50,439 bases of DNA, taken from an uncultured Candidatus Saccharibacteria bacterium. Its GTDB lineage: Bacteria; Patescibacteriota; Doudnabacteria; UBA920. Location of the stretch: contig CAYJQY010000007.1 in the NCBI GenBank assembly GCA_964372905.1, positions 5,229-55,667 of the forward strand, written 5' to 3'. Every line of letters begins with the position of its first letter. The first letter of the stretch is position 1. Shown here piece after piece: positions 1,148 through 49,710 of this stretch. The position numbers and the translations under genes were made by a program. The notes below the pieces were generated by a model. The model did not search any database, was not told the DNA's origin, and saw only the letters and a program-made list of their open reading frames with translations.

Positions 1148-3820
1148 ATGAAAAAACTGATACTTTGGTTCGATGAAATTGGCAAAAAAGATGTAGGGAT
1201 TGTCGGCGGCAAGAACGCCAATTTGGGCGAGATGTACCACCATCTTACCGCCGGCGACGGCAAAACTTTTCCTAAAGAAAAAATCAAGGTACCGTATGGA
1301 TTTGCCATAACCGCCGAAGCCTACCGCTTTTTTATTCGCTCCAACAAGCTCGACCACAAAATCAAGCAAGATTTGCGCGGCCTCAACACTAGAAACATCC
1401 GCGACTTGGAGAAGCGCGGGCAGGCCGTGCGCGACCTCATATTGTCGGCAAAATTCCCGACGGAATTGGCCCAGCAAATCATCACCGCCTACCAAAAACT
1501 GGCCAAGCACTATCGCACCACCACGGCTAAACTAGACGTGGCTGTGCGCTCTTCGGCCACGGCTGAAGATTTGCCCAACGCTTCGTTTGCCGGCCAGCAG
1601 GAAACCTATCTCAACATTCGCGGAGAAAACGAAGTCCTGGAGTCAGTAAAAAAAGGCTTTGCCTCGCTGTTTACCAACCGCGCCATTTCCTACCGCCACG
1701 ACACGGGCTTTGACCATTTCAACGTGGCGCTGTCCGTGGCCGTGCAGAAAATGGTGCGCTCCGACCGCGGCTCATCCGGCGTAATGTTTACTTTAGATAC
1801 GGAAAGCGGCTTTCGCGATGCTATTATCATCAATGCCAGTTATGGCTTGGGCGAGTACGTGGTGGCCGGCATCGTTAATCCCGATGAATTCGTTATATTT
1901 AAGCCAAGTTTAGCCAGAGGATTTAACGCTATCATCAGCAAAAAATTAGGCAGCAAGGAAAAAAAGCTAATTTATGGGATCGATGGCAGCAAGCCGACAA
2001 AAGAGGTCTTAGTTTCGCCGGCCGACCGCCAGCGCTTTGTGCTAACCGAAAAGCACATTTTACAGTTGGCTCGCTGGGGCATGATCATTGAAAATCATTA
2101 TAATCGACCCATGGATATTGAATGGGCTTATGACGGAGCAACGCAAGAACTGTATTTGCTCCAGGCCCGTCCCGAAACCGTGGAGGCGCGAAAACAGCAG
2201 GGCGTGGTGCTGGAAGAGTATCGGCTGCAGCTATCAAACAAGAACGGCAGAAGCGGCAAGGGCGGCGGAAGGGAAAAGCCCGAAACAGGTCAAGGCGGCG
2301 CAAAGAGCGCCAAGGCCGCCGAGCGGAGCAAGAATGCCGCGCCAAAAGTTTTAGTGCGCGGCGTGGCTTGCGGCGCCAAAATCGGCCAGGGCAAAGTCCA
2401 TTTTATAAAAGACGCCTCCCAGATTGCCGAATTCAAGAAAGGCGAGGTGCTGGTTACGGAAATTACCGATCCGGACTGGGAGCCCATTATGAAAATCGCA
2501 GCAGCCATTGTTACGGACTTTGGCGGGCGCACTTCCCATGCCGCGATTGTTTCAAGAGAACTAGGCATTCCGGCCGTGGTCGGCTGCGCCGACGCCACAA
2601 AAATCCTCAAAACCGGCAAAGAGGTAACAGTATCCTGCGCCGAAGGCGAGGTGGGCAAAGTTTACGAAGGCCTCCTGCCGTTCAAAATCGAACGGCATGA
2701 CCTGAAAAACTTCAAGCCGCCCAAAACCGAAGTCAAGATGATTGTGGCTGACCCGGAGCTGGTGTTTGGCTTTGCCCAAATCCCCCATCGCGGGGTGGGG
2801 CTGGCGCGCGAGGAGTTCATCATTTCCAATTACGTCAAAATCCATCCGAATGCGCTTATAAATTATAAATCGATAAAAGATAAAGCCCTGAAAAAGCAGA
2901 TTGATGACTTAACGCGCGGCTACTCAAGCAAAACCGGCTTCTACGTGGAAAAACTGGCTTACGGGATTGCCATGATTGCCGCGGCGTATTATCCCTACGA
3001 AGTGGTGTTAAGATTTTCCGACTTCAAGAGCAACGAGTACCGCAATTTAATCGGCGGCGCGCTGTATGAGCCGGTAGAGGAAAACCCCATGCTCGGCTGG
3101 CGCGGCGCCTCGCGCTATTATGACCCCAAATTTGCCCAAGCTTTTGCCCTGGAATGCCAGGCGGTCAAAAGAGTGCGCGAGGACATGGGTCTGTGGAATT
3201 TAAAGGTGATGATCCCATTCTGCCGCACGCCCGAGGAAGGGCGCAAAGTGCTGGAAATTATGAAACGGCACGGGCTGCCGCGGGCGGGACACCAAGCGGG
3301 CCGCCGGACTGGCCGTAACTTCGCAGGCCGGGACAAGGCCGACCGGACCAAAGGCGCCATGCTCAAAGTTAAAGGCCGCTACGATACCGTAGTGCTGTAT
3401 TCGGGACTTGAAGTTTTGGTGATGGCTGAAGTTCCCTCCAACGTTTTGCAGGCCGAGGAGTTTGCTAAAATTTTTGATGCGTTTTCTATTGGCTCAAACG
3501 ACTTAACCCAGCTCACCTTAGGGCTGGATCGGGACTCCGGGCTAATCGCCCACATTGGCAGCGAGCGCAACGCTTCGGTGAAGCGCTTAATCCATGAGCT
3601 GATTTTAGTGGCTCACAAAAACGGGAAAAAGGTGGGGATCTGCGGCCAGGGGCCGTCGGACTTCCCTGACTTTGGGGAATTTTTGGTGCGCGAGGGTATT
3701 GACTCGATTTCCATCAATCCCGATACGGTGCTTAAAGCCACGCTGAAGATAAAGGCAGTGGAGCAACAGCTCGCCAAAGGTCAACGCCAGCAGGACAAAA
3801 AGGGCGTGGCATTGCTATAG
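1148..3820 (+). CDS. ppsA: Phosphoenolpyruvate synthase (pyruvate, water dikinase) with two low-complexity inserts
   Basis: 890-aa ORF. N-terminus is MKKLILWFDEIGKKDVGIVGGKNANLGEM. Swivel phosphohistidine region is TDPDWEPIMK..GGRTSHAAIVSRELGIPAVVG. C-terminal PEP-utilising barrel has FSIGSNDLTQLTLGLDRDSG. Confidence 0.92.
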   Translation: MKKLILWFDEIGKKDVGIVGGKNANLGEMYHHLTAGDGKTFPKEKIKVPYGFAITAEAYRFFIRSNKLDHKIKQDLRGLNTRNIRDLEKRGQAVRDLILSAKFPTELAQQIITAYQKLAKHYRTTTAKLDVAVRSSATAEDLPNASFAGQQETYLNIRGENEVLESVKKGFASLFTNRAISYRHDTGFDHFNVALSVAVQKMVRSDRGSSGVMFTLDTESGFRDAIIINASYGLGEYVVAGIVNPDEFVIFKPSLARGFNAIISKKLGSKEKKLIYGIDGSKPTKEVLVSPADRQRFVLTEKHILQLARWGMIIENHYNRPMDIEWAYDGATQELYLLQARPETVEARKQQGVVLEEYRLQLSNKNGRSGKGGGREKPETGQGGAKSAKAAERSKNAAPKVLVRGVACGAKIGQGKVHFIKDASQIAEFKKGEVLVTEITDPDWEPIMKIAAAIVTDFGGRTSHAAIVSRELGIPAVVGCADATKILKTGKEVTVSCAEGEVGKVYEGLLPFKIERHDLKNFKPPKTEVKMIVADPELVFGFAQIPHRGVGLAREEFIISNYVKIHPNALINYKSIKDKALKKQIDDLTRGYSSKTGFYVEKLAYGIAMIAAAYYPYEVVLRFSDFKSNEYRNLIGGALYEPVEENPMLGWRGASRYYDPKFAQAFALECQAVKRVREDMGLWNLKVMIPFCRTPEEGRKVLEIMKRHGLPRAGHQAGRRTGRNFAGRDKADRTKGAMLKVKGRYDTVVLYSGLEVLVMAEVPSNVLQAEEFAKIFDAFSIGSNDLTQLTLGLDRDSGLIAHIGSERNASVKRLIHELILVAHKNGKKVGICGQGPSDFPDFGEFLVREGIDSISINPDTVLKATLKIKAVEQQLAKGQRQQDKKGVALL

Positions 3821-6533: not shown

Positions 6534-8768
6534 ATGGCTAACATTCTCATCCGCGAGGCCGCGGGCTGTTTAAGCGAGGTCCAAAAAAGTGAAAGAGGCA
6601 TTATAAGCTTATCATCACGAAACCAGAACTTTGACTGTTTTCGCACCTATCTCACAACTTTTTCGACTTCCACAATTCTTAATTGCCTCGACGGACTGGA
6701 AGTAAATCTGAATATTAGCACCCTTACGATCAAGATTAAAGAAAAGTCAGCTAAATTTCTCCTCTCCCAAAAAAGCCCTCAATGGTCCTTCAACTATTGG
6801 GCCCGGCAGTCGCCGGAATATAAAACCCTGCCTTACCCCGATGACGCCGACGATACTTTTACCGCGCTAGCCGCACTTACGCAATACAACCCCGATCTCC
6901 TCGATCCCTCTGCAATGGCGAAAATCACCCAGTTGTTAATTAGCATCGAAACCGAGCCTGGCGGGCCTTACCGCACCTGGTTTGTGCCGGCAACTAGCGC
7001 AGAAGTGTGGCGCGACGTGGATCTTGCCCCAAACAGCGCCATTGCCTATTTCCTCCAGCTCCAAAAAGTCCGCCTGCCCAAGCTCCTGGCCTGGCTGGAC
7101 GGCCAAATTCTGGCGGGCAACTTTAGCTCGCGCTACTATCCTTTTGAATATCCCATTTTGTATTTTCTCTCGCGCCTGGACGGACTGGAACATCAACAGC
7201 TCATTGTGGAGCGGCTGAAACATCATTTGCAAGCGGATGAATCGGGAGAATCAATAAACATGCTGGAGGCCGGGCTCACAGCCAGCGCCCTGGCCAATGG
7301 CGGCGCGCCCGCCTCTGAAATCAAACCCGCCGTGGACATGATTGAAAAACAATACGCGCTTAACCACTGGCAACCCTTTGCCTTCTGCCTCGATCCGGCT
7401 ATAAACGGCCAAACCCACTATCACGGCTCGAGCGCGCTCACCGCGGCCATAGTTTTGGAGGCGCTGGCTAAATATCAAAATTTGCTGGAGCGGCAGCGGG
7501 GGCGCAGACAGGACAATCGCGGGCATGAGCATGGCGGACAAGACAGCGGCAACCCTGATGCTTCTCACCAAGGTTCCTTTCGTCCTTCCGAAGACTCACT
7601 TCATAAAACGATCCGCCAAAAAGTTACGGCTCTAGCCGACGCCGCCTGCCAAAAGCTCGACCCGCCCCTGCGCCAGCAAGCCCAAACCGTGCTGGCCCAA
7701 ATGCTCAAGCAAGATAAATCGCACTCTATTATTCTTTTGCCCCAGCTGTTTCGCCAGGCGCTCGGCCGCGGCAATGAATCACGCGCTAACGCGTCCCGCG
7801 GCGCCGCGGGACGAGGCGCCGCGTCCGCCAGCGCCGCATCTGAACAGGCCTTCCCCCTCACCGACGAGCTCATGATCCGTCTCGGCCTGGCCCAGCTATA
7901 CGGCTGGTGCGCCTTCTCAACTTTTGACGATGTAATTGACGCGCAAAAATCTCCGAGCGACCTGCCCGCAGCCATGCTTTTTCTGGAGTGGTTCTTGGAT
8001 GGATATCACACCATTGCCGATAACTATCTGGCCAACAATCTTTCCGCCCATCGCGCCGCAAAACAACTCGTGGCCCGATATGTCCAAGCCACCACTTCTG
8101 CTTACGCCCGGGAAATATCTGACTACAGAATTCCCGTGCGCGACAACATCATTTCCATTCCCGCCCGCTTCCTCTCTATCCCCACCCGCTTCCCCAATTT
8201 TAAAGATGCTACTCACCTGGCCGACCGCAGCCTGGGCCACGCCCTGGCCCCGATCATCATCTTGAGTCTTCTTGGCCACAAAAAAGATTCAGCCCCGGTC
8301 CTGGCCACCGAGAATTTTTTCCGCCATTATCTGGCTGCCCGCCAACTCCACGACGACGCTCACGACTGGCGTGAGGACCTGGCCGGCGGCCGGATTACGC
8401 CGGTTACTGCTTTGCTGATGAACTCCTGGCGCACCAACTTTAATAAGACTTCAATAAAACTTGATATAGACCTTCCTCAACTTCATGAGTTATTTTGGAA
8501 TAATTTGATGGGAATCGTATCCCAAAGCATCCATGCGCGCGCAACCCAAGCCCGCGCCGCGCTTAGCGGCGCTGTTCTCAACGATGCCGCGGGCGCAACG
8601 CTAGACAACCTCGCCCTGCCCCACGGTAATTCCCATCAAACCAATTTTCTCGAACATCCCGAGCTGCTTACCAATTTACTTATCCCGCTCGAACGCGGCG
8701 CCAACCAGGCCCTGACCGAGCGCGACAACATCAAACTATTTATGCAAAACTTCAGCCCCAAAACCTGA
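6534..8768 (+). CDS. Two-domain isoprenoid-enzyme-like fusion: N-terminal terpene-cyclase/prenyltransferase alpha-alpha toroid-like domain + C-terminal squalene/phytoene-synthase-like domain
   Basis: 744-aa ORF starting 17 nt after the kinase stop. N-terminal half has YPDDADDTFTALAAL (DxDDT-type class II cyclase motif, nt 6840-6857) and QW-like segments (FLLSQKSPQWSFNYW, ETEPGGPYRTW). C-terminal half has LYGWCAFSTFDDVIDAQ (nt 7926-7940) and ARQLHDDAHDWREDLAGGRITP (nt 8352-8366), 137 aa apart. These resemble the two Asp-rich motifs of CrtB/SQS-family enzymes (YAWCRHCDDVIDDQ; NIARDIVDDAHAGRCYLP). Confidence 0.55.
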   Translation: MANILIREAAGCLSEVQKSERGIISLSSRNQNFDCFRTYLTTFSTSTILNCLDGLEVNLNISTLTIKIKEKSAKFLLSQKSPQWSFNYWARQSPEYKTLPYPDDADDTFTALAALTQYNPDLLDPSAMAKITQLLISIETEPGGPYRTWFVPATSAEVWRDVDLAPNSAIAYFLQLQKVRLPKLLAWLDGQILAGNFSSRYYPFEYPILYFLSRLDGLEHQQLIVERLKHHLQADESGESINMLEAGLTASALANGGAPASEIKPAVDMIEKQYALNHWQPFAFCLDPAINGQTHYHGSSALTAAIVLEALAKYQNLLERQRGRRQDNRGHEHGGQDSGNPDASHQGSFRPSEDSLHKTIRQKVTALADAACQKLDPPLRQQAQTVLAQMLKQDKSHSIILLPQLFRQALGRGNESRANASRGAAGRGAASASAASEQAFPLTDELMIRLGLAQLYGWCAFSTFDDVIDAQKSPSDLPAAMLFLEWFLDGYHTIADNYLANNLSAHRAAKQLVARYVQATTSAYAREISDYRIPVRDNIISIPARFLSIPTRFPNFKDATHLADRSLGHALAPIIILSLLGHKKDSAPVLATENFFRHYLAARQLHDDAHDWREDLAGGRITPVTALLMNSWRTNFNKTSIKLDIDLPQLHELFWNNLMGIVSQSIHARATQARAALSGAVLNDAAGATLDNLALPHGNSHQTNFLEHPELLTNLLIPLERGANQALTERDNIKLFMQNFSPKT

Positions 8769-24517: not shown

Positions 24518-26302
24518 CTAGTGCCAAAAGGCTCGCCGGTGCGTTAACACCATAGCCATTCCCGCCGCGTCAGCCGCCGCAATGGAGGCTTTGTCATTGA
24601 TTGAATCGCCCTGCTGGACAATGGCGGCAATGCCCGCCGCGGCCGCGAGTTTTACTGAATCATCAAACGGAAAAAAGCTGTCGCTGGCCAAAATCGCGCC
24701 TTTGGCCTTTTCCCCGGCCTGCTCTAAAGCGATTTTCACCGAGCGCACGCGCGAGGTTTGCCCCGTGCCAATGCCCCACGTCATGGGCAAATCTTTATCT
24801 ACTATTATTATAGCATTGGAGCTGGTTCTTGTAATGAATTTCCAGGCCAATTGCATTTGCTTGAGTTGATGCGGCGTCGGCTTAACCTGGGTGACAACTT
24901 CCCACTTGTCAAACCCATTTTCAATATCATCGTCCGCTTCCTGCAGGACGAAGCCGCCATCAATCCATTTTAAATTAACGCGCCCCTCTGTGACCCCAGT
25001 TTTTTCGCTCTTATCAGGGGGGGAATTAACTTGAGATTGAATGGATTGAATCGATTGAATGGGGCCGAAACTGTACAAACCCATGGTCTTGCGCACGGCG
25101 GTGAGGGCGGCCGCGGCTGCAGCAGAAATTTCCGGCGCGGCGACTATGTCTATATTGCCGCGCCGTTCATCTTTAAATTGGGAAATGATTTTCGCCGCGG
25201 CCGCATCCATGTCCTTATTTAATACTATGCCGCCGCCGAACGCCGATTCAGGGTCCGCTTCAATGGCGCGGGCCAGGGCTTCGGCGGCCGTGGAGCCGAG
25301 CGCAATGCCGCAGGGATTATTATGTTTGATAACAACGGCGGCCGGTTCGCTGAACAGGCGCACCACTTCCAGGCCGGCATTGATATAGGTGAGGTTCATA
25401 AGCGAGAGTTCCCGGCCGGCGACTTTTCGGAGATGTTGCAGCGGCGTGTCCCGGCCCGGCGTAAAATACACCGCGCCTTTCTGATGCGGGTTTTCCCCGT
25501 AGCGCAAATCATAGGCCTTGCGGCCGGGCAAAGTGATTTCAGCGGGGAATAATTTTTCTCCGCCTCCTCTACCGGCTCCATTGCCCGCTCCGTCCTCTTT
25601 ATCCGGCCCAATCGCCCCAAGATGACGGAAATAATCCGCGACCTGCGCATCGTAAAAAGATAAATGCGCGAAAGCCTTGGCGGCCAGACGGCGCCGCTCA
25701 TCCAAACTCACGCCATGGCTCATACTGCCCGCCTGCAACATCTTCCCGACTGCTTGGTAATCGGCCGGATCAACAATTACCAAAACATTTTTAAAGTTTT
25801 TCGCCGCGGCGCGCACCATGGTCGGCCCGCCCACATCAATATTTTCAATAGCCTGGGCTTCGCTGGCGCTAGTCTGTCTTTCGGCGGCGGCGGAACGACT
25901 CCCGGCCGCGTTCGCCGGTGCTTCTATGCCGCCAAAGGCCGGCCCTCCCGCACCGGCCCGCGCCGCAGTCTGCTCAAACGGATACAAATTGCACACCACT
26001 ATATCAATCGGCTTGATGTTCAATTCCTGCGCCTGCCGCACATGCTCGCTATTTTCGCGGTCAAACAAAATCCCCGACTCAATCTGAAAACTAATGGTCT
26101 TCATGCGGCCGCCAAAACTTTCCGGGTTGCCGGTTATGTCCTGAATCGGCACCACGGCCACGCTGGCCTCGGCCAGCGTCTTGGCCGTGCCGCCAGTGGA
26201 AATTATTTCATAACCAAGTCCGACCAAGGTTTTGGCCAACTCAACAATGCCGGTTTTGTCGGAGACGCTTAATAGCGCGTATTTTTTTTCAATACTATTC
26301 AC
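24518..26302 (-). CDS. purH: Bifunctional AICAR transformylase / IMP cyclohydrolase with three inserts
   Basis: ALLSVSDKTGIVELA, ISTGGTAK, VVCNLYPFE, IENIDVGGPTMVRAAAKN, YGENPHQ, VIKHNNPCG, GIGTGQTSRV, QQGDSINDK. Confidence 0.92.
   Translation of the reverse strand: MNSIEKKYALLSVSDKTGIVELAKTLVGLGYEIISTGGTAKTLAEASVAVVPIQDITGNPESFGGRMKTISFQIESGILFDRENSEHVRQAQELNIKPIDIVVCNLYPFEQTAARAGAGGPAFGGIEAPANAAGSRSAAAERQTSASEAQAIENIDVGGPTMVRAAAKNFKNVLVIVDPADYQAVGKMLQAGSMSHGVSLDERRRLAAKAFAHLSFYDAQVADYFRHLGAIGPDKEDGAGNGAGRGGGEKLFPAEITLPGRKAYDLRYGENPHQKGAVYFTPGRDTPLQHLRKVAGRELSLMNLTYINAGLEVVRLFSEPAAVVIKHNNPCGIALGSTAAEALARAIEADPESAFGGGIVLNKDMDAAAAKIISQFKDERRGNIDIVAAPEISAAAAAALTAVRKTMGLYSFGPIQSIQSIQSQVNSPPDKSEKTGVTEGRVNLKWIDGGFVLQEADDDIENGFDKWEVVTQVKPTPHQLKQMQLAWKFITRTSSNAIIIVDKDLPMTWGIGTGQTSRVRSVKIALEQAGEKAKGAILASDSFFPFDDSVKLAAAAGIAAIVQQGDSINDKASIAAADAAGMAMVLTHRRAFWH
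25035..25061. repeat. 3 x 9-bp tandem repeat inside purH (encodes IQSIQSIQS on the minus strand)
   Basis: GATTGAATG GATTGAATC GATTGAATG read directly. Confidence 0.9.
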
Positions 26303-27744: not shown

Positions 27745-30700
27745 TTAATACTTACTTAATATAGCGTGGTAAGCAGTAAGCGCTTCATTAATTTTTGAAA
27801 TGATGATGCCAGCGCGGCCTTTGATTTCCATCTTTCCACTATTCGTAGCTTTGCCCAACAGCGCAAAAGAAGTTCCCAGCATAGCCGCTTCAAATTCTTT
27901 TTGCTTGTTTGGATCGATGCCGACTAGCACGCGGCCTTGGCTTTCGGAAAATAAAGCATTGGCGTCGGGCAAAATTGCGCCGGGAATTTTTGCCAGATCC
28001 ACTGCCACGCCCAAATTGCCGGCCATAGCAGTTTTGGCTAAAGCAACGGCAAGCCCGCCGCGGCCAACACTAATGGCTGATGCAACCAAATCCTGTTTTA
28101 TGGCAGCAGCCAACGCGTGATACAACCGATTATTTTTCACCGCGTCCACGCGCGGTACCTCACTTTTAATTTTTGAACTGCCCTGTTCAACGCGATGCTC
28201 ACTATATTCATGAAGATACTCAACAAATTCCGAACCGCCCAGCTCATCATAAGTTTCGCCGAGCACATAAATTAAATCGCCAGGCGACTTCAAATCAATC
28301 GAAACTGCTGTGGTTACATCTTTAATAACGCCAATGGCGGAAATCAGCAGCGTAGGCAAAATTGAAATGTCAACGCGCTTACCTTGGGCATCAAACCCGT
28401 GAAAATCATTGAACATGCTGTCCTTGCCGGAAATGAACGGAGTGCCGTAGGCCACGGTGTAATCAAAACAGGCACGCGCCGCGGCTTTCAGTTGCGCCAG
28501 CCGTTTCGGATCCTGCGAACTGCACCAGCAAAAATTATCCAGCAGGGCTAAGTGGTCGGGGTCGGCGCCCGTAGCCACAGCCTGCCGTACCGCCGAATCA
28601 ACGCAACAGGCGGCCATATCATACGGACTCAATTCAGAATATGATGGATACAGCGCCTGGGTCAGTACCACGCCGCGGCTTGAATCCAAAACCGGCCGGA
28701 TCACCGCCGCATCGCCATTCACGCGCCCCTTGCCTTGCAGCGGCTTAATAATAGAGGTGCCTTGGACTTCGTGATCGTATTGCTGCGAAATAAAGGAAAA
28801 ACTGGCCAAATTCGGCCGGCCCAGCATATCTTTCAAGGCCGTCTTGAGATTTAATTTATCGGGAAGATCTGATTTAAGAGAATGAGTTGATAGCGCCAGC
28901 AGGGCCGTATTTTGTTGATGAATCGGCCGGCCATCATGCAAAAATTTCATATCCAAATCCATCACATTTTTTTCTTTATACTTCACCATGCACGTTCCGG
29001 AATCGGTGAACTCGCCAACAACCATGGCTTCTACGCCGCGCCTCTGCATCAACTTTTGAAATTGTTGCCACTTATTTTTTGGCACGGCCAGAGTCATACG
29101 CTCCTGCGATTCAGAAATCCAAATCTGCCACGGCGCCATGCCGGGATACTTCAACGGCACTTTATCCAAATAAACCAGACAGCCGCCGGACTCGCGCGCC
29201 ATTTCCGCCACAGAACAAGACAAACCGCCTGCGCCGTTATCCGTAATGCTGTTGTAAAGATTTAAATCGCGCGCCTCGCGCACCAATGCATCGCTCATTT
29301 TCTTTTGGGTGATGGGGTCGCCAATCTGGACCGCAGTTGCCGGGCTGTCGGAGCTCAATCCTTCGGAAGAAAAAGTTGCCCCGTGAATGCCGTCCAGGCC
29401 CACGCGCCCGCCCGCCATAACCACATAGTCCCCCGCCCGCGCCCGCTTCACGTGACTCAATCGGCCGCCAACCTTGCGCGGAATCAATCCTACGGTTCCG
29501 GCAAACACTAACGGCTTGCCGCGAAAACGCTTGTCAAAGTAAATAAATCCCGTTGGCGTCGGAATACCGGCCTGGTTGCCGCCGGCATTAATTCCGGCGA
29601 CCACGCCTTCCATAATTCTGCGCGCCGAGAGCATTTTCTGCTTGCGCTCGGAATCCCTATACAGCTCGCTTTCATCGCGCGGGTCAGCTACGCAAAAACC
29701 ATAAACATTGGCAATAGGTTTGGCGCCCAGGCCAAAGCCCAAAGTGTCGCGGTTCACGCCGCCAATGCCGGTAATGGCGCCGCCGAATGGGTCTAAAGCC
29801 GACGGCGTGTTGTGAGTTTCAACTTTATGCGTGATCAGATATTTATCGTCAAAAACTATGGCGCCGGAATTATCGGTAAAGACCGAAACGCAAAAATCTT
29901 TTTTCCCTTTGCTCTTTCTAATCTGCTCGGTGGCGCCCTTAATATACCTCTTGTATAATCCTTCCTTGACTTCATCAATCGGGTCGGCAAAAATTGTGTG
30001 CTTGCAGTGTTCGCTCCAGGTCTGGGCCAATGCTTCCAGTTCAATATCCGTAGGATTACGGCCAAGCTTGGCAAAATGATTGCGAATTTGCTTCATATAT
30101 GCCAAATTCAGCGCCAGCGGCCCGCGGCGAAATCCTTTGGGATCCATAATCCCCTCTTTGCCAATGCGCGCCAGTTCATCATCCTTAACCTGCAAATCTA
30201 CAGGAATAGCCCGTGCCGTTTCGTGCAAATTAACTTTCGGCACATACGGCGCCGAACCGATTTTTTTCTGACACCGATCAAACGTCTGCACAGTGGCGCG
30301 CTGAATCAGCGGGTTATACAAGCTCCCGGCAATTTTTTTGATATCGCGCGGCGCCAGCTTGCCGGAAATAAAAAAGACCTGGGAAGAGTAAATGCCTTCA
30401 CCGGCCTTAAATTTTTTCTTAAGTAAATCTTCTATGGTCTCGCGCGCAGTAGTTCCTACATTATCGGTAACCCCGGGCAAAAATCCAATCTCAATAGCCC
30501 AGCCAAACTTTTTGGATCCAGCCGAAATGAAGCCGCTCGCGTTTCCAGTTCTGCCATGCGTGCCACCGGCTACGACCTTTCCATCAATGATCGCCCGCTG
30601 GGTCACCGGATTTGTCAATGCCTCGGCCACGCGTGCCAATTGCTTATCATTCAGCCCGGCATCAATCACATAAGAATCAACAACACCCACCGAGGTCAGT

Positions 30701-30792
30701 GGGTGCGAAAGTCCTAAACTCTGAAAGTAGGCGGTCTTCACCTGGGCGCGAGTGTCGGAAATAATGGGCTGGATATCAATCCGGTGAGCCAT
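27745..30792 (-). CDS. purL: FGAM synthase subunit PurL with an N-terminal ~230-aa extension containing PurS-like repeat(s)
   Basis: 1015 aa. Core motifs: WSEHCKHTIF, VETHNHPSA-like VETHNTPSALDPFGGAITG, SESQERM, ISGKDSM. The N-terminus (VVDSYVIDAGLNDKQLARVAEALTNPVTQ; SSQVFFISGKLAPRDIKKIAGSLYNPLIQ) looks like two PurS-type modules. No separate purS gene is present. Confidence 0.85.
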   Translation of the reverse strand: MAHRIDIQPIISDTRAQVKTAYFQSLGLSHPLTSVGVVDSYVIDAGLNDKQLARVAEALTNPVTQRAIIDGKVVAGGTHGRTGNASGFISAGSKKFGWAIEIGFLPGVTDNVGTTARETIEDLLKKKFKAGEGIYSSQVFFISGKLAPRDIKKIAGSLYNPLIQRATVQTFDRCQKKIGSAPYVPKVNLHETARAIPVDLQVKDDELARIGKEGIMDPKGFRRGPLALNLAYMKQIRNHFAKLGRNPTDIELEALAQTWSEHCKHTIFADPIDEVKEGLYKRYIKGATEQIRKSKGKKDFCVSVFTDNSGAIVFDDKYLITHKVETHNTPSALDPFGGAITGIGGVNRDTLGFGLGAKPIANVYGFCVADPRDESELYRDSERKQKMLSARRIMEGVVAGINAGGNQAGIPTPTGFIYFDKRFRGKPLVFAGTVGLIPRKVGGRLSHVKRARAGDYVVMAGGRVGLDGIHGATFSSEGLSSDSPATAVQIGDPITQKKMSDALVREARDLNLYNSITDNGAGGLSCSVAEMARESGGCLVYLDKVPLKYPGMAPWQIWISESQERMTLAVPKNKWQQFQKLMQRRGVEAMVVGEFTDSGTCMVKYKEKNVMDLDMKFLHDGRPIHQQNTALLALSTHSLKSDLPDKLNLKTALKDMLGRPNLASFSFISQQYDHEVQGTSIIKPLQGKGRVNGDAAVIRPVLDSSRGVVLTQALYPSYSELSPYDMAACCVDSAVRQAVATGADPDHLALLDNFCWCSSQDPKRLAQLKAAARACFDYTVAYGTPFISGKDSMFNDFHGFDAQGKRVDISILPTLLISAIGVIKDVTTAVSIDLKSPGDLIYVLGETYDELGGSEFVEYLHEYSEHRVEQGSSKIKSEVPRVDAVKNNRLYHALAAAIKQDLVASAISVGRGGLAVALAKTAMAGNLGVAVDLAKIPGAILPDANALFSESQGRVLVGIDPNKQKEFEAAMLGTSFALLGKATNSGKMEIKGRAGIIISKINEALTAYHAILSKY

Positions 30793-30867
30793 GGAAGATT
30801 ATATGGAAAGGTTTTGATGATAAATTGAGGCCCTCCCGCGCTCGTACGGCTGGGGCACCACATGAAC

Positions 30868-30896
30868 ATTATAATAGAAATTGTCAAGATTGGCAA
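30868..30896 (-). promoter_or_regulatory. Candidate promoter of the purL-led operon
   Basis: On the minus strand: TTGCCA, 17 nt, TATAAT (plus-strand TGGCAA at 30891-30896 and ATTATA at 30868-30873). This leaves a GC-rich leader of about 68 nt before the purL ATG. Confidence 0.5.
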
Positions 30897-30897
30897 A

Positions 30898-32085
30898 TTA
30901 CAAAACCATGGCCCAAACCAGCCAAAACGTTAGAGCTAAATCGTTCTTAAAGTAAGGGTTGTCGATCTGGCCTTGAACCAAAAGCGCAATCAAAAACAGG
31001 GCCAGCCCAAAAGCAGCCAGATTGGCGCGGTTACGGAGACCGTGCCAAATGCCATAGGCGCATAGCGCCACAAAACTGATCAAACCCAACAGCCCGGTAT
31101 CGATCCAAGCATCTAAAAAGATGTTATGCGGGAACGGATAGTGGCCGAGCGAAGAATCCACGGCATAATCATTCCAACTGTGATCGGCACCGAGGAGGCC
31201 TTTGCCCACAATCGGATTATCCTGAACCATATGCCAGCCGGTTTGCCACAGCGAAACCCGCGCCGAAGAGGAACGTTCGCCGTAAAACGGCAGGATAACG
31301 CGCCAGCGCAAATTCGGCACCGCGGCCGCGATAATGATGCCAACCAGACCAAGCGCCAAAGCCGTTTGCGTCAGTTTTTTATTGGCCCCAACCACAACAA
31401 AAACAACCGCAGCCGCAGCTAATCCCAGCCAGGCCCCCCGCGAAAGCGATAGCACCAACCCCGCCGCGCCCAGCAGCCAAGCCAGCGCCGCGGCCATATT
31501 AACCGGCAAACGAAAATTCCTGATGCGCTCAAACAAGTCGGGAAGCAAAAAGGCCAACAGTGGAGTAATGAACAGCGCATAAGCATTAGGATGGACAAAA
31601 AAACTGATAGCCCGCTTGGGCTCAACGCTATTGCCCCACCATGCCGGAGGCAAGCCGTGCAGCGTGAAATATTGATAGATAGCGTACAGGCCCGAGATGG
31701 CCAAAACGACATAAAAACTTTTGAGCAAAAAAGCGCTTGCCTGTGGCCGCACTTTCCTCACATAACGGGCGATATAAAACATGCCGACGGGCTGGACGAA
31801 CCAGACCAAGTACTGCCCGAGTTTCTGCTGGCTAAAACCGCCGACAAATAAAGCAAGGGTACCGGCAAGCAAAAACAAGCCGATGATAATTTTCAATGCC
31901 GGAGGCATATCAAGTTTCGAACGGACATATTTCGCCACCCGCTTGGTGGCAATCAGCCAAATAATAAAAACTGCCCAGAGCAAAAATATCCAGACCAGGA
32001 GCGCGTTAGCCGGCAAGCCGGCCAGCGAAAACCTGGCCACATAAGCCGGGGCCAGGAAAAAAGTTAGTACGATAAGATATTCCAT
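30898..32085 (-). CDS. O-antigen ligase/polymerase (Wzy_C) family membrane protein
   Basis: At least 10 hydrophobic helices. The characteristic loop segment LSLSRGAWLGLAAAAVV is followed by a periplasmic-type loop. Confidence 0.7.
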   Translation of the reverse strand: MEYLIVLTFFLAPAYVARFSLAGLPANALLVWIFLLWAVFIIWLIATKRVAKYVRSKLDMPPALKIIIGLFLLAGTLALFVGGFSQQKLGQYLVWFVQPVGMFYIARYVRKVRPQASAFLLKSFYVVLAISGLYAIYQYFTLHGLPPAWWGNSVEPKRAISFFVHPNAYALFITPLLAFLLPDLFERIRNFRLPVNMAAALAWLLGAAGLVLSLSRGAWLGLAAAAVVFVVVGANKKLTQTALALGLVGIIIAAAVPNLRWRVILPFYGERSSSARVSLWQTGWHMVQDNPIVGKGLLGADHSWNDYAVDSSLGHYPFPHNIFLDAWIDTGLLGLISFVALCAYGIWHGLRNRANLAAFGLALFLIALLVQGQIDNPYFKNDLALTFWLVWAMVL

Positions 32086-32178
32086 AGTTCAAGGTAAAAA
32101 ATTTTCTGCTTCAACCAAGTTATTGACATAGTATTCGCCCGCAGCCCTAAAATAAAGATTTGCCCATAAACTTTTCAT

Positions 32179-32883
32179 CTACTTAAATTTATTTCGCGCG
32201 GTCTTTCCTTTTACAAGCTGCCACTCCGTAAGTTTACCCGCCGCAATCTCAATGGGGTCGGCGCGGCGGAAAAGTCTGCGTTGCACCTTCGGCACAATGG
32301 GGTAGTGTTGTATTTTATCAAGATGATCGGGAATTTCCCATAAATCTTTGTCGCTGGTACGCCAATTCAGATGCTCGAATGGCCGCAAGCTCATAGGACG
32401 GGAAAAATCGTACATGGTTTTCTTGCCGTCATCCATAAAATATTCATGAAAAAAAGATAAAGCCAATTCGCGCAAGGTCCTATAAACCGGCTCGCGGTAG
32501 CGCAACACGGCATGATTGGTCTTGCTGATCGCGCCCCAATATCCTTGGCCCTGGCGGGAGTGTTCCCGGCCCGTGCGCCGGTCGCGACCCTGGGCCTGGT
32601 CCTGCCGCCCGCGGCTCCGGAACAGCGCCACCACATGGTCAAAATCGCGGTCAGCCGCGCGCAAGTCCAGGAGCAAAGGCGCGTGCCCGTGGAATTCCAA
32701 GGCGCAGGCCGCCAGCATCGCCCCTTCCATGCAGTGGGCTTTGCCGGTTTCCAGCACGCGCCGCGGCGACATGCAGGTATCCCCGCGCTCCTCAAAATTG
32801 ATTTTCAAAGTCTCCAAAAAATCCTGGATTTTTGCCGGCGTGTTGAGGCGGCGAAATACCCGTGATTCTCGACTGTTAAACAT
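32179..32883 (-). CDS. Transglutaminase-like (papain-like Cys-His-Asp) superfamily protein with low-complexity insert
   Basis: GKAHCMEGAMLAACAL (nucleophile Cys context), then FDHVVALF (His). A 26-aa RSRGRQDQAQGRDRRTGREHSRQGQG insert follows directly after the His segment. Confidence 0.5.
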   Translation of the reverse strand: MFNSRESRVFRRLNTPAKIQDFLETLKINFEERGDTCMSPRRVLETGKAHCMEGAMLAACALEFHGHAPLLLDLRAADRDFDHVVALFRSRGRQDQAQGRDRRTGREHSRQGQGYWGAISKTNHAVLRYREPVYRTLRELALSFFHEYFMDDGKKTMYDFSRPMSLRPFEHLNWRTSDKDLWEIPDHLDKIQHYPIVPKVQRRLFRRADPIEIAAGKLTEWQLVKGKTARNKFK

Positions 32884-32892
32884 TATAATTTT

Positions 32893-33819
32893 TTACTTTA
32901 ATTTTTTTGATTTTGATTCCACCCCGTGCCCGCCAAATTGTTTGCGCAGCAGGGCCAGAATTTTGTTACGGAACAGTCGTTGGTTTTTTGGATCTTCGGA
33001 TTCGCGCCGAACTTGCAGCGACGCCTCAATCACCCGCGCATCCACGCCGAGTTCGCGCGCCGCGTTCACGGTCCACTCGGCTTCGCCCGTAGCCCGGACC
33101 AGCCCAACCGTGCTTGCAATATCTTCCTTGGCAAAAATATCGGCCATCAAATCAATCAGCCAGGAATGAATTACCGAACCTTTTTGGTAAATTTTGGTCA
33201 CCTGCGCTAAATCCAATTTAAAATTACCGGCCTGCAAAACCGAATAGCCCTCGGCAATGGCTTCCATCATGCCGTACTCAATACCGTTGTGCACCATCTT
33301 CACAAAATGACCGGCGCCGGTTTTGCCCACCAACCCGTAATTATCCCCGCAAGACAGCGCTTTAAACACCGGCTCTACGATTGGCCACTGTTCCTTGGGC
33401 CCGCCGACCATTAACGCGAATCCGTTTTTTTCGCCCCACACGCCGCCCGAAGTTCCGCAATCATAAAAGATGATGCCCTGTTTGGCCAAAACTTCCGCCC
33501 GGCGCATGCTTTCCTTGTAAAACGAATTGCCGCCTTCAATAACGATATCCCCGGCGCGCAAATACTGAACCAAGCCTGCCGGCCCAAACAGAAAATCCTC
33601 AACCAGGGCATTCGGCAACATGAGCCAAAACACCCGCGGTGTTTTGCTCATCGCTTCCGACAACTCTTTGACCGCGGCAAAAGCCCTGCCGCCAAATTGT
33701 TCAAAGGCCTTGCGCGGCTCCTCGGACCGATTCCACGCAAAAATATTAAAACCATTTTTCTGCAACCGCCGGGCAATCTGCCCACCCATCCTGCCCAAAC
33801 CGAGAACCGCAATGTTCAT
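32893..33819 (-). CDS. gnd: 6-phosphogluconate dehydrogenase, short (decarboxylating, YqeC/GntZ-like) form
   Basis: MNIAVLGLGRMGGQIARRL Rossmann start, GAGHFVKMVHNGIEYG signature. Confidence 0.85.
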   Translation of the reverse strand: MNIAVLGLGRMGGQIARRLQKNGFNIFAWNRSEEPRKAFEQFGGRAFAAVKELSEAMSKTPRVFWLMLPNALVEDFLFGPAGLVQYLRAGDIVIEGGNSFYKESMRRAEVLAKQGIIFYDCGTSGGVWGEKNGFALMVGGPKEQWPIVEPVFKALSCGDNYGLVGKTGAGHFVKMVHNGIEYGMMEAIAEGYSVLQAGNFKLDLAQVTKIYQKGSVIHSWLIDLMADIFAKEDIASTVGLVRATGEAEWTVNAARELGVDARVIEASLQVRRESEDPKNQRLFRNKILALLRKQFGGHGVESKSKKLK

Positions 33820-36605: not shown

Positions 36606-36683
36606 ATATTATATAAAGATAGTCTCTTTATTAGTATAGCAAAAAACCACAATTCTGTACGTGGGAGTGCGCGGGGCGGATTA

Positions 36684-36711
36684 TTGACAAAAAGTTAAAG
36701 ATGTTTATAAT
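36684..36711 (+). promoter_or_regulatory. Consensus sigma70-type promoter
   Basis: TTGACA (36684-36689), 16 nt, TATAAT (36706-36711). Both hexamers are perfect. Confidence 0.6.
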
Positions 36712-36729
36712 TAAACTATAAAGGACTTT

Positions 36730-36792
36730 ATGGCCAATATCAGTATAGTCAATATTATTAAAAATATTATCCTCGCCCGCTTCGGGACATAG
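36730..36792 (+). CDS. 20-codon micro-ORF (leader peptide, small hydrophobic peptide, or non-coding)
   Basis: AAGGA lies 5 nt upstream of the ATG. Translation is MANISIVNIIKNIILARFGT (6 Ile, 3 Asn). It sits between the consensus promoter and a terminator. Confidence 0.2.
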   Translation: MANISIVNIIKNIILARFGT

Positions 36793-36829
36793 GCTGGATA
36801 TAGTTTTGGCTCTTTTACATCCATAGCCA

Positions 36830-36851
36830 CCGTCCCCAAGGACGGATTTTT
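36830..36851 (+). terminator. Rho-independent terminator
   Basis: CCGTCC ccaa GGACGG followed by ATTTTTATTTT. Confidence 0.6.
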
Positions 36852-36977
36852 ATTTTAATAGGGAGCTTTCTCCGCGGAGAATCGCTCGCTATGGGATGAG
36901 GCTGTAGCTAGAGCTTCAGCCAATACTCGCATAACGACCAACCTGTGCGGAGAATTTTCGCTGTTAGGAGAGCTACT

Positions 36978-37136
36978 ATGAATGGAACGAAGGAGGAGAA
37001 GGATGACGACGGAGGGGTCCGACAGGACCCCAGGAACATTCCGGACTGGCCGAAACGGCCGCCCGGCGTGGCCGTGACCCCGCCCGTAAGCGGGGACCCC
37101 GTGGGCGGGGACACAGATGACCCCGCTTATGATTGA
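36978..37136 (+). CDS. Questionable 52-aa acidic/proline-rich ORF inside a GC-rich structured island
   Basis: SD-like AGGAGA lies 6 nt upstream of the ATG. Translation is MNGTKEEKDDDGGVRQDPRNIPDWPKRPPGVAVTPPVSGDPVGGDTDDPAYD. The same DNA is full of GC hairpins and is open on the other strand too, so coding status is unresolved. Confidence 0.2.
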   Translation: MNGTKEEKDDDGGVRQDPRNIPDWPKRPPGVAVTPPVSGDPVGGDTDDPAYD

Positions 37137-37145
37137 GACAAGGAC

Positions 37146-37190
37146 CGGCCAAAGAGAAGACGATGGAAGTTACATCTTCTTCTCTTTGGC
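37146..37190. other. Perfect 14-bp stem hairpin
   Basis: GGCCAAAGAGAAGA (37146-37159) pairs with TCTTCTCTTTGGCC (37177-37190). The 17-nt loop contains a further GATG/CATC pairing. Confidence 0.7.
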
Positions 37191-37213
37191 CGCCCACTTT
37201 ACGCTCCAGCTTA

Positions 37214-37242
37214 TTGACACCGCCAAAAATTTATTTTAAACT
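37214..37242 (+). promoter_or_regulatory. Candidate typA promoter
   Basis: TTGACA (37214-37219), 17 nt, TAAACT (37237-37242). Confidence 0.45.
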
Positions 37243-37361
37243 GCTTACAAGAAGCCTGACCCGCAGGCATTTTTTATTGCAGCCGGCGCGCAAAAGGAGT
37301 ACACAGAAAGCTCTTCTAAAAAATTTTTGCGCTTTATTATTTTGAGCTTTAACTTTTATTC

Positions 37362-39293
37362 ATGAAACGCGAAAACATCCGCAATGTGGCCATCATCGCC
37401 CATGTTGACCACGGCAAGACCACGCTGGTGGACGCCATGCTCAAACAAACGCAGTCAGTTAAAAATGACAGCGCCGATTTGATTATGGACTCCATGGATT
37501 TGGAGCGCGAGCGCGGCATCACCATTACCGCCAAAAACGCTTCCATTGAATACAACGGCATGCGCATTAACATAGTGGACACGCCGGGCCACGCGGATTT
37601 CGGCGGCGAAGTTGAGCGCACCCTGCGCATGGCCGATGGCGTGCTCCTGCTGGTTGATGCCAAAGAAGGGCCCATGCCGCAAACCAAGTTCGTCCTGCGC
37701 AAAGCCTTGGAGCTCGGCCATCAGGCCATTGTGGTCATCAATAAAGTTGATAAACCCGACGCGCAAATCGACGAAGTCGTCAACCGCACCTTTGACCTGT
37801 TCGTCCAGCTCAAAGCCAGCGACGCCCAGCTGGACTTTCCCATTATTTACGCCAGCGGCATTTATGGCGTGGCTAACACAGACTTGCCTGCTTTGCAAAA
37901 AGCCCTCAACTCCGGCGACGCTCTGCCCAATGAGCAACACAACATCGTGCCAATCTTTGAAGCCATCATCAAGCACATTCCCGCCCCCGAAATTCAGCCC
38001 AATGACCCCTTTGCCATGCTCGTCCTGGCGCTGCGCTACGATAATTACAAAGGCAAAATCGGCATCGGCAAAATCCAGTCTGGCACAGTGAAAAAAGCCC
38101 AGACCATTGCCAAAATCAAGCGCGACGGCAGTGTCAGCCAGGGTAAAGTTACCAGTCTGCAAATGTACCGCGGGCTAATCCCGGCGGAAGTCGAAGAAGC
38201 CGCGGCCGGCGACATTGTCGCAGTCGGTGGGTTCGACGATATCCAGATCGGCGAAACTTTATCCGACGCTGCCAATCCTAAACAGATCCCTCCCGTAGAA
38301 ATCGAACAACCGACGATTAAGATGACATTCGGCGTGAATACTTCGCCCTTTGCCGGACGCGAAGGCAAGCTCGTAACCTCGCGCAATCTGCGCGGCCGCT
38401 TACACAAGGAACTGGAAACCAATGTGGCTTTGAAAGTCGAACCGGCCGAAACTGGGGACGCCTTTCTGGTATCCGGCCGCGGCGAACTGCATCTGGGCGT
38501 GCTCATCGAAACCATGCGGCGCGAAGGCTTTGAACTGCAAGTTTCCCAGCCGCAAGTTATCTATAAATATGAAGAAAACGGCCAAAAGTTGGAGCCGTAC
38601 GAAATTTTAACCATCGACGTACCCAGCGAATACCAGGGCGCGGTCATTGAAGAAGTCGGGCGCCGCGGCGGCGAGTTACAGCATATGGACATCGGTGGCG
38701 GTCAGCCCGGCGGCAGCGCGGACAGCGGCGGCGCGACTGCCGGCGCCGGCGGGCAAAGCCGGTCCGCAGGGCTCACCGGCGAACTCCACGCCGAGTACCT
38801 AATCCCTACCCGCGGCCTCATCGGCCTGAAAAATTTACTCCTCACCCGCACGCGCGGCATGGCTATTGTCAATAATTTATTCGATTCTTACCGGCTAACC
38901 CACGAGATTGATTTACGAGGCAACGAACATGGCTCGCTCATTGCCTCTGAAGCTGGCGTGTCCAACGCCTACGGCCTCAACAACGCCCAGGAGCGCGGCA
39001 TCTTATTTATTGGCCCTGCGGTAGAAGTCTACGAGGGTATGGTCGTGGGCAAAAATTCCGTTGACACTGACTTGGAAATCAATGTTACTAAAACCAAAAA
39101 ACTGTCCAACATGCGGGCGTCAGGTTCGGACGAAGGCATTATTTTGACGCCGCCCCGCGAGGTTACGTTGGACTTCTCCCTGGAATACATCGGTCCGGAT
39201 GAGCTGGTCGAGGTTACGCCAAAAAGTATCCGGGTCCGCAAGCGCGTCCTCTCGTCTGTTGAGCGTAAACGCAGCAGGCGCCAGGGACAATAA
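37362..39293 (+). CDS. typA: Translational GTPase TypA/BipA with a Gly/Ser/Ala-rich insert
   Basis: [19 protein letters not shown] (G1), [14 protein letters not shown] (G3), NKVD (G4), with EF-G-like domains following. Confidence 0.93.
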
Positions 39294-40652: not shown

Positions 40653-40661
40653 ATGGTTATA

Positions 40662-40795: not shown

Positions 40796-40818
40796 ATCAT
40801 CATAAAAAATAAATAAAA

Positions 40819-41019: not shown

Positions 41020-41075
41020 GCTGGTATTGTAGCACTGCGGCTTAACAGAGCAAGCGCAATCCCGAATTTCTTGAT

Positions 41076-48671: not shown

Positions 48672-49460
48672 ATGGCCAAGCGCATCTTTGTGGCCATAAA
48701 AATTTCTGAAGGGCTGGAGCAGATCATCAAAAAGTGGCAGGACTCCCAACAAAATTTTCAGGGCCGGTGGATCGCGCCGAAGAATTTGCACATTACGCTG
48801 GTGCCACCCTGGCATACTACTGAAATTGATTCGACCATTGAACAGTTGCGCGCGGTAGTTGACGCAAAGTCAAGCACGGCAAACGGCGCGGCGGTTGGCC
48901 CGATGCCAGGCGCGGTAGACGGCGCGGCATCCGATACGGCATTAAGCCCGGCGCCGTTTGAAATAAAGTTCAATGCAATCCGGGGCGGGCCCGATGCCCG
49001 CGCCCCGCGCCTCCTCTGGCTGGAAGGCCCTACCCCGCCCGCGCTCCTGGAACTGAAACACCGCATTGAACAAACTCTCAAGCGGCATGTTACAAACGGC
49101 GGCCGGCCGGAATTCCACATGCGCATGAACCAAAAAAATCAAATTGAAAAAACGCCGGGTTCAAAAATTATTAGCGGGCGACTCTCGCCCCAAAACCGCG
49201 GCGCGAACAATCAATTTCATCTCCACATAACTTTGGCTCGCTTTAAGCGCGGCGCGGCATTCTCCAACCGCGACCGCCCCAATGACATCCCATCCTCTAA
49301 CCACGATCGCCCCAACGGTATTCCCACAGCGATGCAGGAAACTGTGGACTGGCGCGAAAGCGTGAATTCATTCGCGCTCATGGAATCGCACTTGCTTGCC
49401 GACGGCGCGGACTACGAAATTTTGGAAACTTTTCCGCTAATCTCGTCCGCCAAACCTTAA
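48672..49460 (+). CDS. thpR: 2H-phosphoesterase (RNA 2',3'-cyclic phosphodiesterase ThpR/LigT-like) with three inserts
   Basis: Two HxT motifs in the right order: NLHITLVPPW and FHLHITLARF. The N-terminal RIFVAIKI strand is present. About 80 aa longer than typical family members. Confidence 0.65.
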   Translation: MAKRIFVAIKISEGLEQIIKKWQDSQQNFQGRWIAPKNLHITLVPPWHTTEIDSTIEQLRAVVDAKSSTANGAAVGPMPGAVDGAASDTALSPAPFEIKFNAIRGGPDARAPRLLWLEGPTPPALLELKHRIEQTLKRHVTNGGRPEFHMRMNQKNQIEKTPGSKIISGRLSPQNRGANNQFHLHITLARFKRGAAFSNRDRPNDIPSSNHDRPNGIPTAMQETVDWRESVNSFALMESHLLADGADYEILETFPLISSAKP

Positions 49461-49652: not shown

Positions 49653-49710
49653 GTTACATTATTGGCAGTTGTGGATTGCCCCGCAATGCCGCATCATCTA
49701 TACTAAAAAC

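Follow-up and report, generated by a model that had tools for sequence, protein, structure and literature searches.

In-frame disordered loop insertions in conserved proteins of one Candidate Phyla Radiation lineage

Where do short, in-frame segments of low sequence complexity come from when they interrupt genes for conserved enzymes? The question is raised by a 50,439-nucleotide stretch of DNA, here called the window, from an uncultured Candidatus Saccharibacteria bacterium (Patescibacteriota; Doudnabacteria in the GTDB lineage). A preliminary description of the window, centered on a segment that we call TG_1 in a gene for a predicted protease, proposed that a lineage-specific process had seeded GC-rich DNA into surface loops of housekeeping proteins. 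This observation was largely right, and its proposed cause mostly was not. The inserts are real and fixed in the population, they lie in predicted coil, and none of the nearest relatives has them. Several of them arose through tandem duplication or slippage of 9- to 36-nucleotide units. We conclude that the inserts are probably independent, lineage-specific, in-frame expansions of disordered loops in one lineage of the Candidate Phyla Radiation (CPR).

TG_1 and its host gene

The gene that carries TG_1 was previously labelled transglutaminase-like. The gene itself stands, and fold and sequence comparisons now assign its predicted product to the CPR-C4 family of cysteine proteases. An AlphaFold (AF2) model, built with 63 homologs as input, has a predicted local distance difference test (pLDDT) score of 89 and a predicted template modelling (pTM) score of 0.86. 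Its top Foldseek matches are the CPR-C4 structures 7ob6 and 7pjo (E 1e-23, 45% identity, template modelling score 0.79 to 0.88), with vasohibins next, and the protein matches 7ob6 by phmmer with an E-value of 1.4e-54. Residues C51, H83 and L127 are invariant and align to C61, H93 and L115, which were published as the catalytic triad of CPR-C4 (PMC9108980). The host gene is therefore predicted to encode a CPR-C4-family protease whose Cys-His-Leu triad appears intact. The window protein thus shares with CPR-C4 (7OB6/7PJO; PMC9108980) the same fold and the conserved triad, and differs from it by a disordered loop of 22 residues that is missing in the crystallised protein and in 117 of 120 homologs.

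This loop is TG_1. The preliminary description had placed an insert of 26 amino acids at 32542-32619; a true in-frame insertion is indeed present, and alignment shortens it and shifts its bounds (Table 1). TG_1 is missing from all 15 aligned homologs in a 16-sequence alignment, from the syntenic relative L170 and from the crystal sequence 7ob6, in which it falls as a clean insertion between residues 112 and 113. In the AF2 model it forms a coil (pLDDT 57 to 61) at the tip of the beta-hairpin that strands 83-89 and 116-120 form, and in the sequence it is located between the predicted catalytic residues His83 and Leu127. The segment is free of stop codons in all six frames. An internal repeat, a hairpin and similarity to the flanks were each looked for in TG_1, and none was found.

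Inserts in other genes and their absence from relatives

Systematic alignment with orthologs, used to set insert boundaries, revealed in-frame, window-specific insertions in several further genes (Table 1). The inserts claimed earlier in TypA, PpsA (two), ThpR (three) and the N-terminus of PurL were confirmed by alignment with orthologs or with Protein Data Bank (PDB) chains, and those in PurH are present as well and number three, not two. Confirmed inserts are 12 to 44 amino acids long (36 to 132 nucleotides); their lengths are multiples of three and they contain no stop codons, so that they preserve the reading frame as had been proposed. The TypA insert is missing in E. coli BipA (5a9v), in seven CPR orthologs and in a syntenic ortholog with 83% identity (P0122, in genome L164). 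The first PpsA insert sits in the linker between the ATP-binding domain and the mobile His domain, where the match to 2ols found by phmmer is interrupted at query 352/397 versus chain 345/355; at the second insert the interruption falls at query 713/752 versus chain 670/672. The insert purH_1 is missing in 13 orthologs, including one that is 76% identical (P0242), and in PDB entry 4ehi. The ThpR inserts were defined by alignment with 11 orthologs of 172 to 205 amino acids, and neither the syntenic PurL ortholog of L170 (~85% identical) nor any of 12 orthologs at greater distance has the N-terminal insert of PurL.

Structure models place the inserts in loops, as the preliminary description had suggested. 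In the AF2 model of PurH, the internal segments of at least five residues with a pLDDT below 50 (residues 120-142, 230-247, 426-430 and 432-437) correspond to the three inserts, and predicted low-pLDDT coil, bordered by confidently modelled secondary structure, coincides with the inserts of both PurH and the CPR-C4 protein.

Table 1. Coordinates of the host gene, inserts and structured intergenic elements in the window (nt, nucleotides; aa, amino acids; ORF, open reading frame)
Feature	Coordinates	Strand	Description
Host gene of TG_1	32179..32883	-	234 aa, predicted CPR-C4-family cysteine protease
TG_1	32545..32610	-	residues 91-112, 22 aa, GRQDQAQGRDRRTGREHSRQGQ, GC 0.79
TypA insert (typA_1)	38691..38780	+	net +25 aa, GC 0.81, takes the place of a turn of 4-6 residues
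PpsA insert 1 (ppsA_1)	2204..2335	+	aa 353-396, net ~+34 aa, GC 0.61
PpsA insert 2 (ppsA_2)	3287..3400	+	aa 714-751, ~+37 aa, GC 0.62
PurH insert 1 (purH_1)	25856..25963	-	28 aa private, ~aa 118-145, GC 0.74
PurH insert 2 (purH_2)	25553..25618	-	aa 229-250, site hypervariable across CPR
PurH insert 3 (purH_3)	24992..25048	-	aa 419-437, QSIQSQVNSPPDKSEKTGV, tandem repeat of 9 nt x3
ThpR insert 1 (thpR_1)	48864..48947	+	~25 aa, internal 36-nt direct repeat
ThpR insert 2 (thpR_2)	49086..49214	+	~35-40 aa, GC 0.50, not GC-rich
ThpR insert 3 (thpR_3)	49260..49334	+	unit of 10-11 aa tandemly duplicated (NRDRPNDIPS / NHDRPNGIPT)
PurL N-terminal insert	30517..30585	-	+3 and +12 aa (KVV, THGRTGNASGFI), total +15
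Candidate insert isop_2, orphan 744-aa ORF	7764..7847	+	15-nt x3.2 tandem repeat encoding RGAAG/RGAAS/ASAAS
Candidate low-complexity segment, orphan 744-aa ORF	7491..7595	+	basis composition only
Structured GC-rich patch	36995-37135		DNA fold z -3.3
Structured GC-rich patch	49525-49665		imperfect long hairpin; z -3.8 for the RNA fold, equalled in 0 of 200 shuffles
Inverted-repeat element	40661-40797 (patch 40655-40800)		~135 nt, GC-rich, RNA fold z -5.5

The inserts are a heterogeneous class with GC contents of 0.50 to 0.81. The class of GC-rich inserts described earlier holds for the five that are strongly GC-rich (0.67 to 0.81) and does not extend to the rest, which are at 0.50 to 0.62. Two inserts are Arg-rich with a net positive charge, and both encode ..RRTGR.., as had been noted for those of the protease and PpsA. 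Window-specific inserts that are not GC-rich also occur in PurA (aa 314-355) and in PurL (aa ~859-875). The one in PurA (gene at 13401-14882) is a helix-like segment of ~40 amino acids with a GC content of 0.46, and private inserts are therefore not all of the Gly/Arg-rich type. Two further candidates reside in an ORF of 744 amino acids (6534-8768), previously described as an isoprenoid fusion, for which no Pfam, NCBIfam or PDB relatives were found.

Three relatives were available for comparison: L164 (TypA 83% identical, syntenic, GC 0.52), L170 (PurL ~85%), in which the gene order CPR-C4-Wzy-PurL is the same as in the window, and L171 (PurH 76%). Relatives in this range of 75 to 85% identity came from protein database searches and contig look-ups; GTDB representatives and JGI metagenome contigs contained no close relative, their best orthologs being at most 61% identical. 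Homologs of the TG_1 host protein, TypA and PurH belong almost exclusively to metagenome-assembled genomes (MAGs) of Patescibacteria/CPR (Doudnabacteria, Yanofskybacteria and Parcubacteria, for example). The nearest orthologs of TypA (83%), PurH (76%), the CPR-C4 protein (75%) and PurL (~85%) all lack the inserts, as do more distant ones, and the polarity of the insertions is clear because all outgroups are without them. No reciprocal gains of inserts were seen in the nearest relatives.

In panels made up of the 120 nearest homologs of each family, 5 TypA, 18 PurH and 3 CPR-C4 proteins have private internal inserts that are 8 amino acids or longer, and the window genome ranks second for the amount of private insert in all three panels. 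The joint probability of these ranks would be ~1e-4, if events were independent across genomes. From the second rank in three of three panels and the insert-free nearest relatives, it follows that the lineage-specific excess is real and that this genome is a genuine outlier; lineage specificity, as originally claimed, is thereby borne out. The insertion sites are hot spots of insertion and deletion (indels) across CPR, where unrelated sequences are found.

The inserts are also reproducible between samples. Rather than being absent at the read level, which had been named as grounds for doubt, they are contained without indels in three independent assemblies (Logan; different sequencing runs) that are 99.76 to 99.95% identical and show zero gaps over positions 28810-33307, a region that includes the inserts of CPR-C4 and of PurL. 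The lengths of PurH, PpsA and ThpR are identical among strain variants.

Composition and tandem repeats

The GC-richness of the inserts could be a property of the inserted DNA or of the peptides it encodes. The window has a GC content of 50.7%, and its background values at codon positions 1, 2 and 3 (GC1, GC2 and GC3) are 0.56, 0.39 and 0.59. The corresponding pooled values are 0.68, 0.59 and 0.64 for 13 inserts and 0.76, 0.76 and 0.73 for the five richest. GC3 expected from the encoded amino acids and the genome's own synonymous codon usage is 0.63 for the 13 inserts, against 0.64 observed (z 0.39), and 0.68 for the five richest, against 0.73 observed (z 1.2). The excess GC is located at codon positions 1 and 2. 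Among the encoded residues, Gly is enriched 2.2-fold, Arg 1.9-fold and Ser, Gln, Asn and Ala ~1.6-fold (1.55-fold at the lowest), and Leu, Phe, Tyr, Val and Ile are depleted to 0.3 to 0.4 of background. Because synonymous GC3 equals native usage, the GC-richness reflects disordered peptides rich in Gly, Arg, Ala and Ser. This composition is the signature of disordered loops and argues against the seeding of foreign or otherwise special GC-rich DNA into genes, which was the process originally envisaged. More generally, GC-rich islands within genes need not mean foreign or mobile DNA, and amino-acid-conditioned GC3 tells these cases apart.

Significant internal tandem repeats are present in 4 of the 13 inserts, for which slippage or expansion, one of the causes listed earlier, is supported. 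In purH_3, Tandem Repeats Finder (TRF) reports 3.1 copies of a 9-nucleotide period at 25035-25062 (self-repeat p=0.003), and in the candidate insert isop_2 it reports a repeat at 7790-7837 (self-repeat p=0.037, 6-mer recurrence p=0.003). The ThpR inserts thpR_1 and thpR_3 resemble themselves at shifts of 36 nucleotides (p=0.003) and 33 nucleotides (p=0.007), respectively. Pooled over the inserts, local recurrence exceeds that of codon shuffles for codons (p=0.01) and for 6-mers (p=0.005). TypA proteins of another lineage provide a clear case of insert growth through tandem duplication: P0138 has a single copy of a 23-amino acid insert, KYASGALPGGELHEPAQPGSLRS, and P0166 has two copies of it in tandem (50 amino acids).

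Under the reading of independent loop expansions, conserved proteins would have acquired peptide rich in Gly, Arg, Ser, Ala, Gln and Asn at their turns and inter-domain linkers. The remaining inserts, including TG_1, probably followed the same route or derive from other small local insertion events, with their repeat signal since wiped out by point mutation. Sequence that is GC-rich, hydrophilic and free of stops is the kind that can last in frame at a turn, and such inserts presumably persist because hydrophilic, stop-free additions to a surface turn have almost no effect on fitness. The lineage probably also has an unusual tendency to acquire and retain short DNA segments. Three intergenic spacers are much longer in the window than in L164 (756 versus 104 nucleotides, 170 versus ~2 and 210 versus 14), which suggests a general bias to gain or retain small insertions.

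Disordered or low-complexity loop insertions that originate from replication slippage are a known phenomenon (PMC11285758, bioRxiv 10.1101/2022.09.23.509281). Like these low-complexity regions, the window inserts are hydrophilic, compositionally biased and lineage-specific, are located at turns and linkers, are dominated by GC-rich codons within native codon usage, and in some cases contain degenerate tandem repeats. They differ in that many belong to core enzymes encoded by a reduced CPR genome, in that most have no repeat structure, and in that they exhibit no length polymorphism among the sampled strains. The window inserts, which cluster in one CPR lineage, are a fresh instance of a kind of protein evolution that is already known.

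The genomes of CPR bacteria are small and streamlined. A dozen recently added disordered loops in core enzymes, together with longer spacers, run counter to the deletion bias that would be expected of them. The affected enzymes (TypA, PurH, PurL, PpsA, ThpR and the CPR-C4 protein) offer a natural experiment on how well conserved folds tolerate loop insertion. There are practical consequences as well. Profile matches of PurH, ThpR and PpsA are split into two or three stretches; inserts such as these inflate protein lengths and fragment profile matches, and, in CPR MAGs, could mislead annotation, the use of phylogenetic markers and the prediction of structures.

Mobile elements and other sources of the inserts

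If the inserts were copies of a mobile mini-insertion, as was also proposed, they should resemble one another. Two nucleotide motifs had been reported as common to TG_1 and ppsA_2. The first, CCGCGGGCGG, occurs twice in the window versus 0.51 times expected, and 9 of 100 shuffles equal that. The second reduces to the 8-mer GGCCGGGA, because the pattern as originally written matches ppsA alone. Aligned with ordinary scoring, the two inserts, a pair picked post hoc, reach p=0.085, and p=0.005 is obtained only with very cheap gaps. Both motifs are at chance level. All-versus-all local alignment of the 13 inserts with ordinary scoring yields 7 of 78 pairs at p<0.05, none of them strong. No relationship survives more stringent analysis: nhmmer detects no non-self match with E<0.1 for any insert, no k-mer is common to three or more inserts, and motif discovery over the inserts finds nothing in common at lengths of 10 to 14, with a borderline result at 16. 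Similarity between inserts and their flanking DNA, as would be expected of origin by flank duplication, was not detected either. On these grounds, and in view of the hairpin results described below, the proposal of a mobile mini-insertion is not supported for the window inserts.

Such elements are nevertheless real in the phylum, because palindromic repeat elements reside within genes of other CPR bacteria. While indels were being polarised, lineage-specific in-frame inserts in other CPR genomes were found to be, in many cases, obvious palindromic repeat elements. Genome L085 has many of them in purine genes (for example, 17463-17499, 7843-7912 and 13675-13711). An element of ~60 nucleotides (containing CCCTCCCCTCATRAGGGGAGGG) is located in the gene for 6-phosphogluconate dehydrogenase (6PGD) in L022 (6052-6118) and L057 (6725-6770) and in a different gene in L085. 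PurH of L168 (593-2404) contains three hairpin inserts and PurH of L169 (2001-3632) contains one, with minimum free energy (MFE) z-scores of -1.6 to -5.0. In all, the genes hit in other CPR genomes include PurH, 6PGD, genes of the purine operon and TypA. The hairpin inserts of L168 and L169 served as a positive control for the hairpin test, in which none of the 13 window inserts rises above shuffles (MFE z -0.8 to +2.0); the hypothesis that the window inserts are hairpins was rejected on this comparison. A search of the window for the element of L022 and L085, and for signature peptides of the other CPR hairpin repeats, found none. Hairpin density per kilobase was uninformative for telling genomes apart. 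The palindromic inserts of L085, L022, L057, L168 and L169 and those of the window are found within one phylum-level group, share their genes (PurH, TypA, 6PGD) and loop sites, and are GC-richer than their own genomes. However, the former have strong hairpins and recur across genomes and genes, and the latter do neither. In the library searched, we found no literature on in-frame, palindromic or low-complexity inserts specific to CPR, and these elements of other CPR genomes may be of broader interest than the inserts of the window.

Small mobile sequences within bacterial genes have been described previously (PMC2229807, PMC3184786) and form the class for comparison. Rickettsia palindromic elements (RPEs) have been described as selfish DNA that entered unrelated protein-coding genes in frame (Ogata et al. 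2000, as summarised in PMC10969869). They are recognisable palindromic repeat families of ~100-150 bp with conserved encoded peptides. The window inserts are likewise in frame, in many unrelated housekeeping genes and at structurally tolerated, fold-compatible positions. Unlike RPEs, they have no family, dyad symmetry or conserved peptide.

The GC-rich hairpin elements between genes were suggested earlier to be the noncoding counterpart of the inserts. Structured elements do exist in three spacers (Table 1), and their kinship to the inserts extends no further than one 13-mer. The element at 40661-40797 looks like a transposable element of the miniature inverted-repeat type (MITE). It has terminal inverted repeats of 20/21 nucleotides, GCACCGGCGAACGT(T)GCCAGT, and is wedged between an HTH_17-like ORF (40823-41020, minus strand) and holA. 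The nearest relative, L164, is without this element, and the HTH_17-like ORF and holA are there 1-2 nucleotides apart. The mechanically predicted holA ORF of the window (39684-40691) starts at a GTG at 40691, within the element, and alignment with orthologs moves the start to an ATG at 40652.

Several observations weigh against the reading of the inserts as independent loop expansions. TG_1, the TypA and PpsA inserts, purH_1 and purH_2 have neither an internal repeat nor flank similarity, so that a slippage origin is extrapolated for most inserts. No length polymorphism was observed in three to four strain-level assemblies (a small sample that is >99.7% identical), and active slippage tracts often vary in length. 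A burst in one lineage also calls for a cause, and none was identified. In addition, some mutual similarity was detected. The terminal 13-mer of the inverted-repeat element, GCACCGGCGAACG, recurs exactly once, inside purH_1 (25909-25921). Gap-friendly alignment against codon shuffles gives 7 of 182 tests at p<0.01; among GC-rich inserts, 8 of the 42 directed pairs lie at 1% or less relative to GC- and length-matched DNA of other CPR genomes; and TypA_1 aligns with the reverse complement of purH_1 at p ~1-3e-4 with cheap gaps.

This 13-mer and the mild excess of similarity among GC-rich inserts are what would be expected if the inserts were decayed or partial copies of GC-rich palindromic mini-elements, similar to MITEs or RPEs, that invaded both spacers and coding loops. 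The in-frame elements of other CPR genomes, one of them common to three genomes, and an inverted-repeat element missing in the nearest relative are also consistent with such an origin, as are the 6 matches that GCACCGGCGAACG has with up to two mismatches, versus 1.87 expected, a count that 1 of 100 shuffles equals. We nonetheless regard it as unlikely. The excess of mutual similarity disappears under moderate or strict scoring, and we read what remains as a shared vocabulary of GGC, GCC, CGG and CCG triplets together with the oligonucleotide signature of the genome. The nhmmer search relates purH_1 to the element with E=1.4, where only 50 kb of the genome is covered; no pair scores better. Comparisons of inserts with intergenic patches are at chance level (2 of 182 tests at p<0.01), and the three structured patches have no relation to one another by alignment or nhmmer. 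The hairpin and motif results, the native codon usage and the lack in the window of the L022-type element and of the signature peptides also stand against this origin. The 13-mer common to the element and purH_1 is a lead, not a demonstration. An improbable scenario built on it is a wave of small GC-rich insertions into spacers and in-frame loops, with the element at 40661-40797 as a survivor that is still intact and the coding inserts as eroded or partial copies. If this were true, then CPR, given also the clear palindromic in-frame elements of its other genomes, would be a second and much broader case, after Rickettsia, of selfish DNA inside protein-coding genes.

Quite unlikely, in our estimate, is that selection kept or recruited the inserts because disordered Arg/Gly-rich loops are useful, perhaps in binding of RNA or partners, in solubility or in contacts with a host cell. 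The inserts are fixed and have equal lengths in independent samples, two of them share the Arg-rich, positively charged sequence containing ..RRTGR.., and the CPR-C4 insert lies between the predicted catalytic His and Leu in the sequence, all of which could be taken as signs of function. However, the host proteins are functionally unrelated, and no peptide motif is common to the inserts, which are rich in R/Q/D in CPR-C4, in G/A/S in TypA and PurH and in N/K/Q in ThpR_2. The same sites are indel hot spots elsewhere, with unrelated sequences, and the sample of strains is too shallow for constraint to be measured.

The inserts might also be filler or templated DNA from error-prone repair of double-strand breaks, or foreign fragments of high GC content, for example from a host, of which only the stop-free, in-frame cases would have survived. 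Most inserts have no detectable local source, TG_1 is open in six frames, GC-rich DNA seldom has stops, and GC3 is slightly raised in TG_1 (z 2.1) and TypA_1 (z 1.6). Given that pooled GC3 is native and that no donor was found inside the 50-kb window, such an origin is very improbable. That the inserts are artefacts of assembly or gene calling is barely conceivable, because independent assemblies are gap-free, strain variants retain the inserts at stable lengths, and every insert is stop-free, with a length divisible by three.

Inteins and self-splicing introns were considered and rejected: at 36-132 nucleotides, the inserts are smaller than mini-inteins (at least ~130 amino acids) and introns (>200 nucleotides), and they exhibit no excess of structure. 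Rfam searches of the window and its spacers detected tRNA-His alone.

Among the other structured patches, the hairpin at 49535-49640 is upstream of an ORF that starts at 49712; it has no Rfam match even at E<=1. The spacer at 36606-37361 (756 nucleotides, versus 104 in L164) contains an ORF of 52 amino acids, rich in Pro, Gly and Asp, at 36979-37137. This ORF, which may be a small gene of recent origin, is preceded by AGGAG 7 nucleotides upstream, spans a structured patch with a GC content of 84%, and is followed at 37146-37192 by a terminator hairpin with a 19-bp stem.

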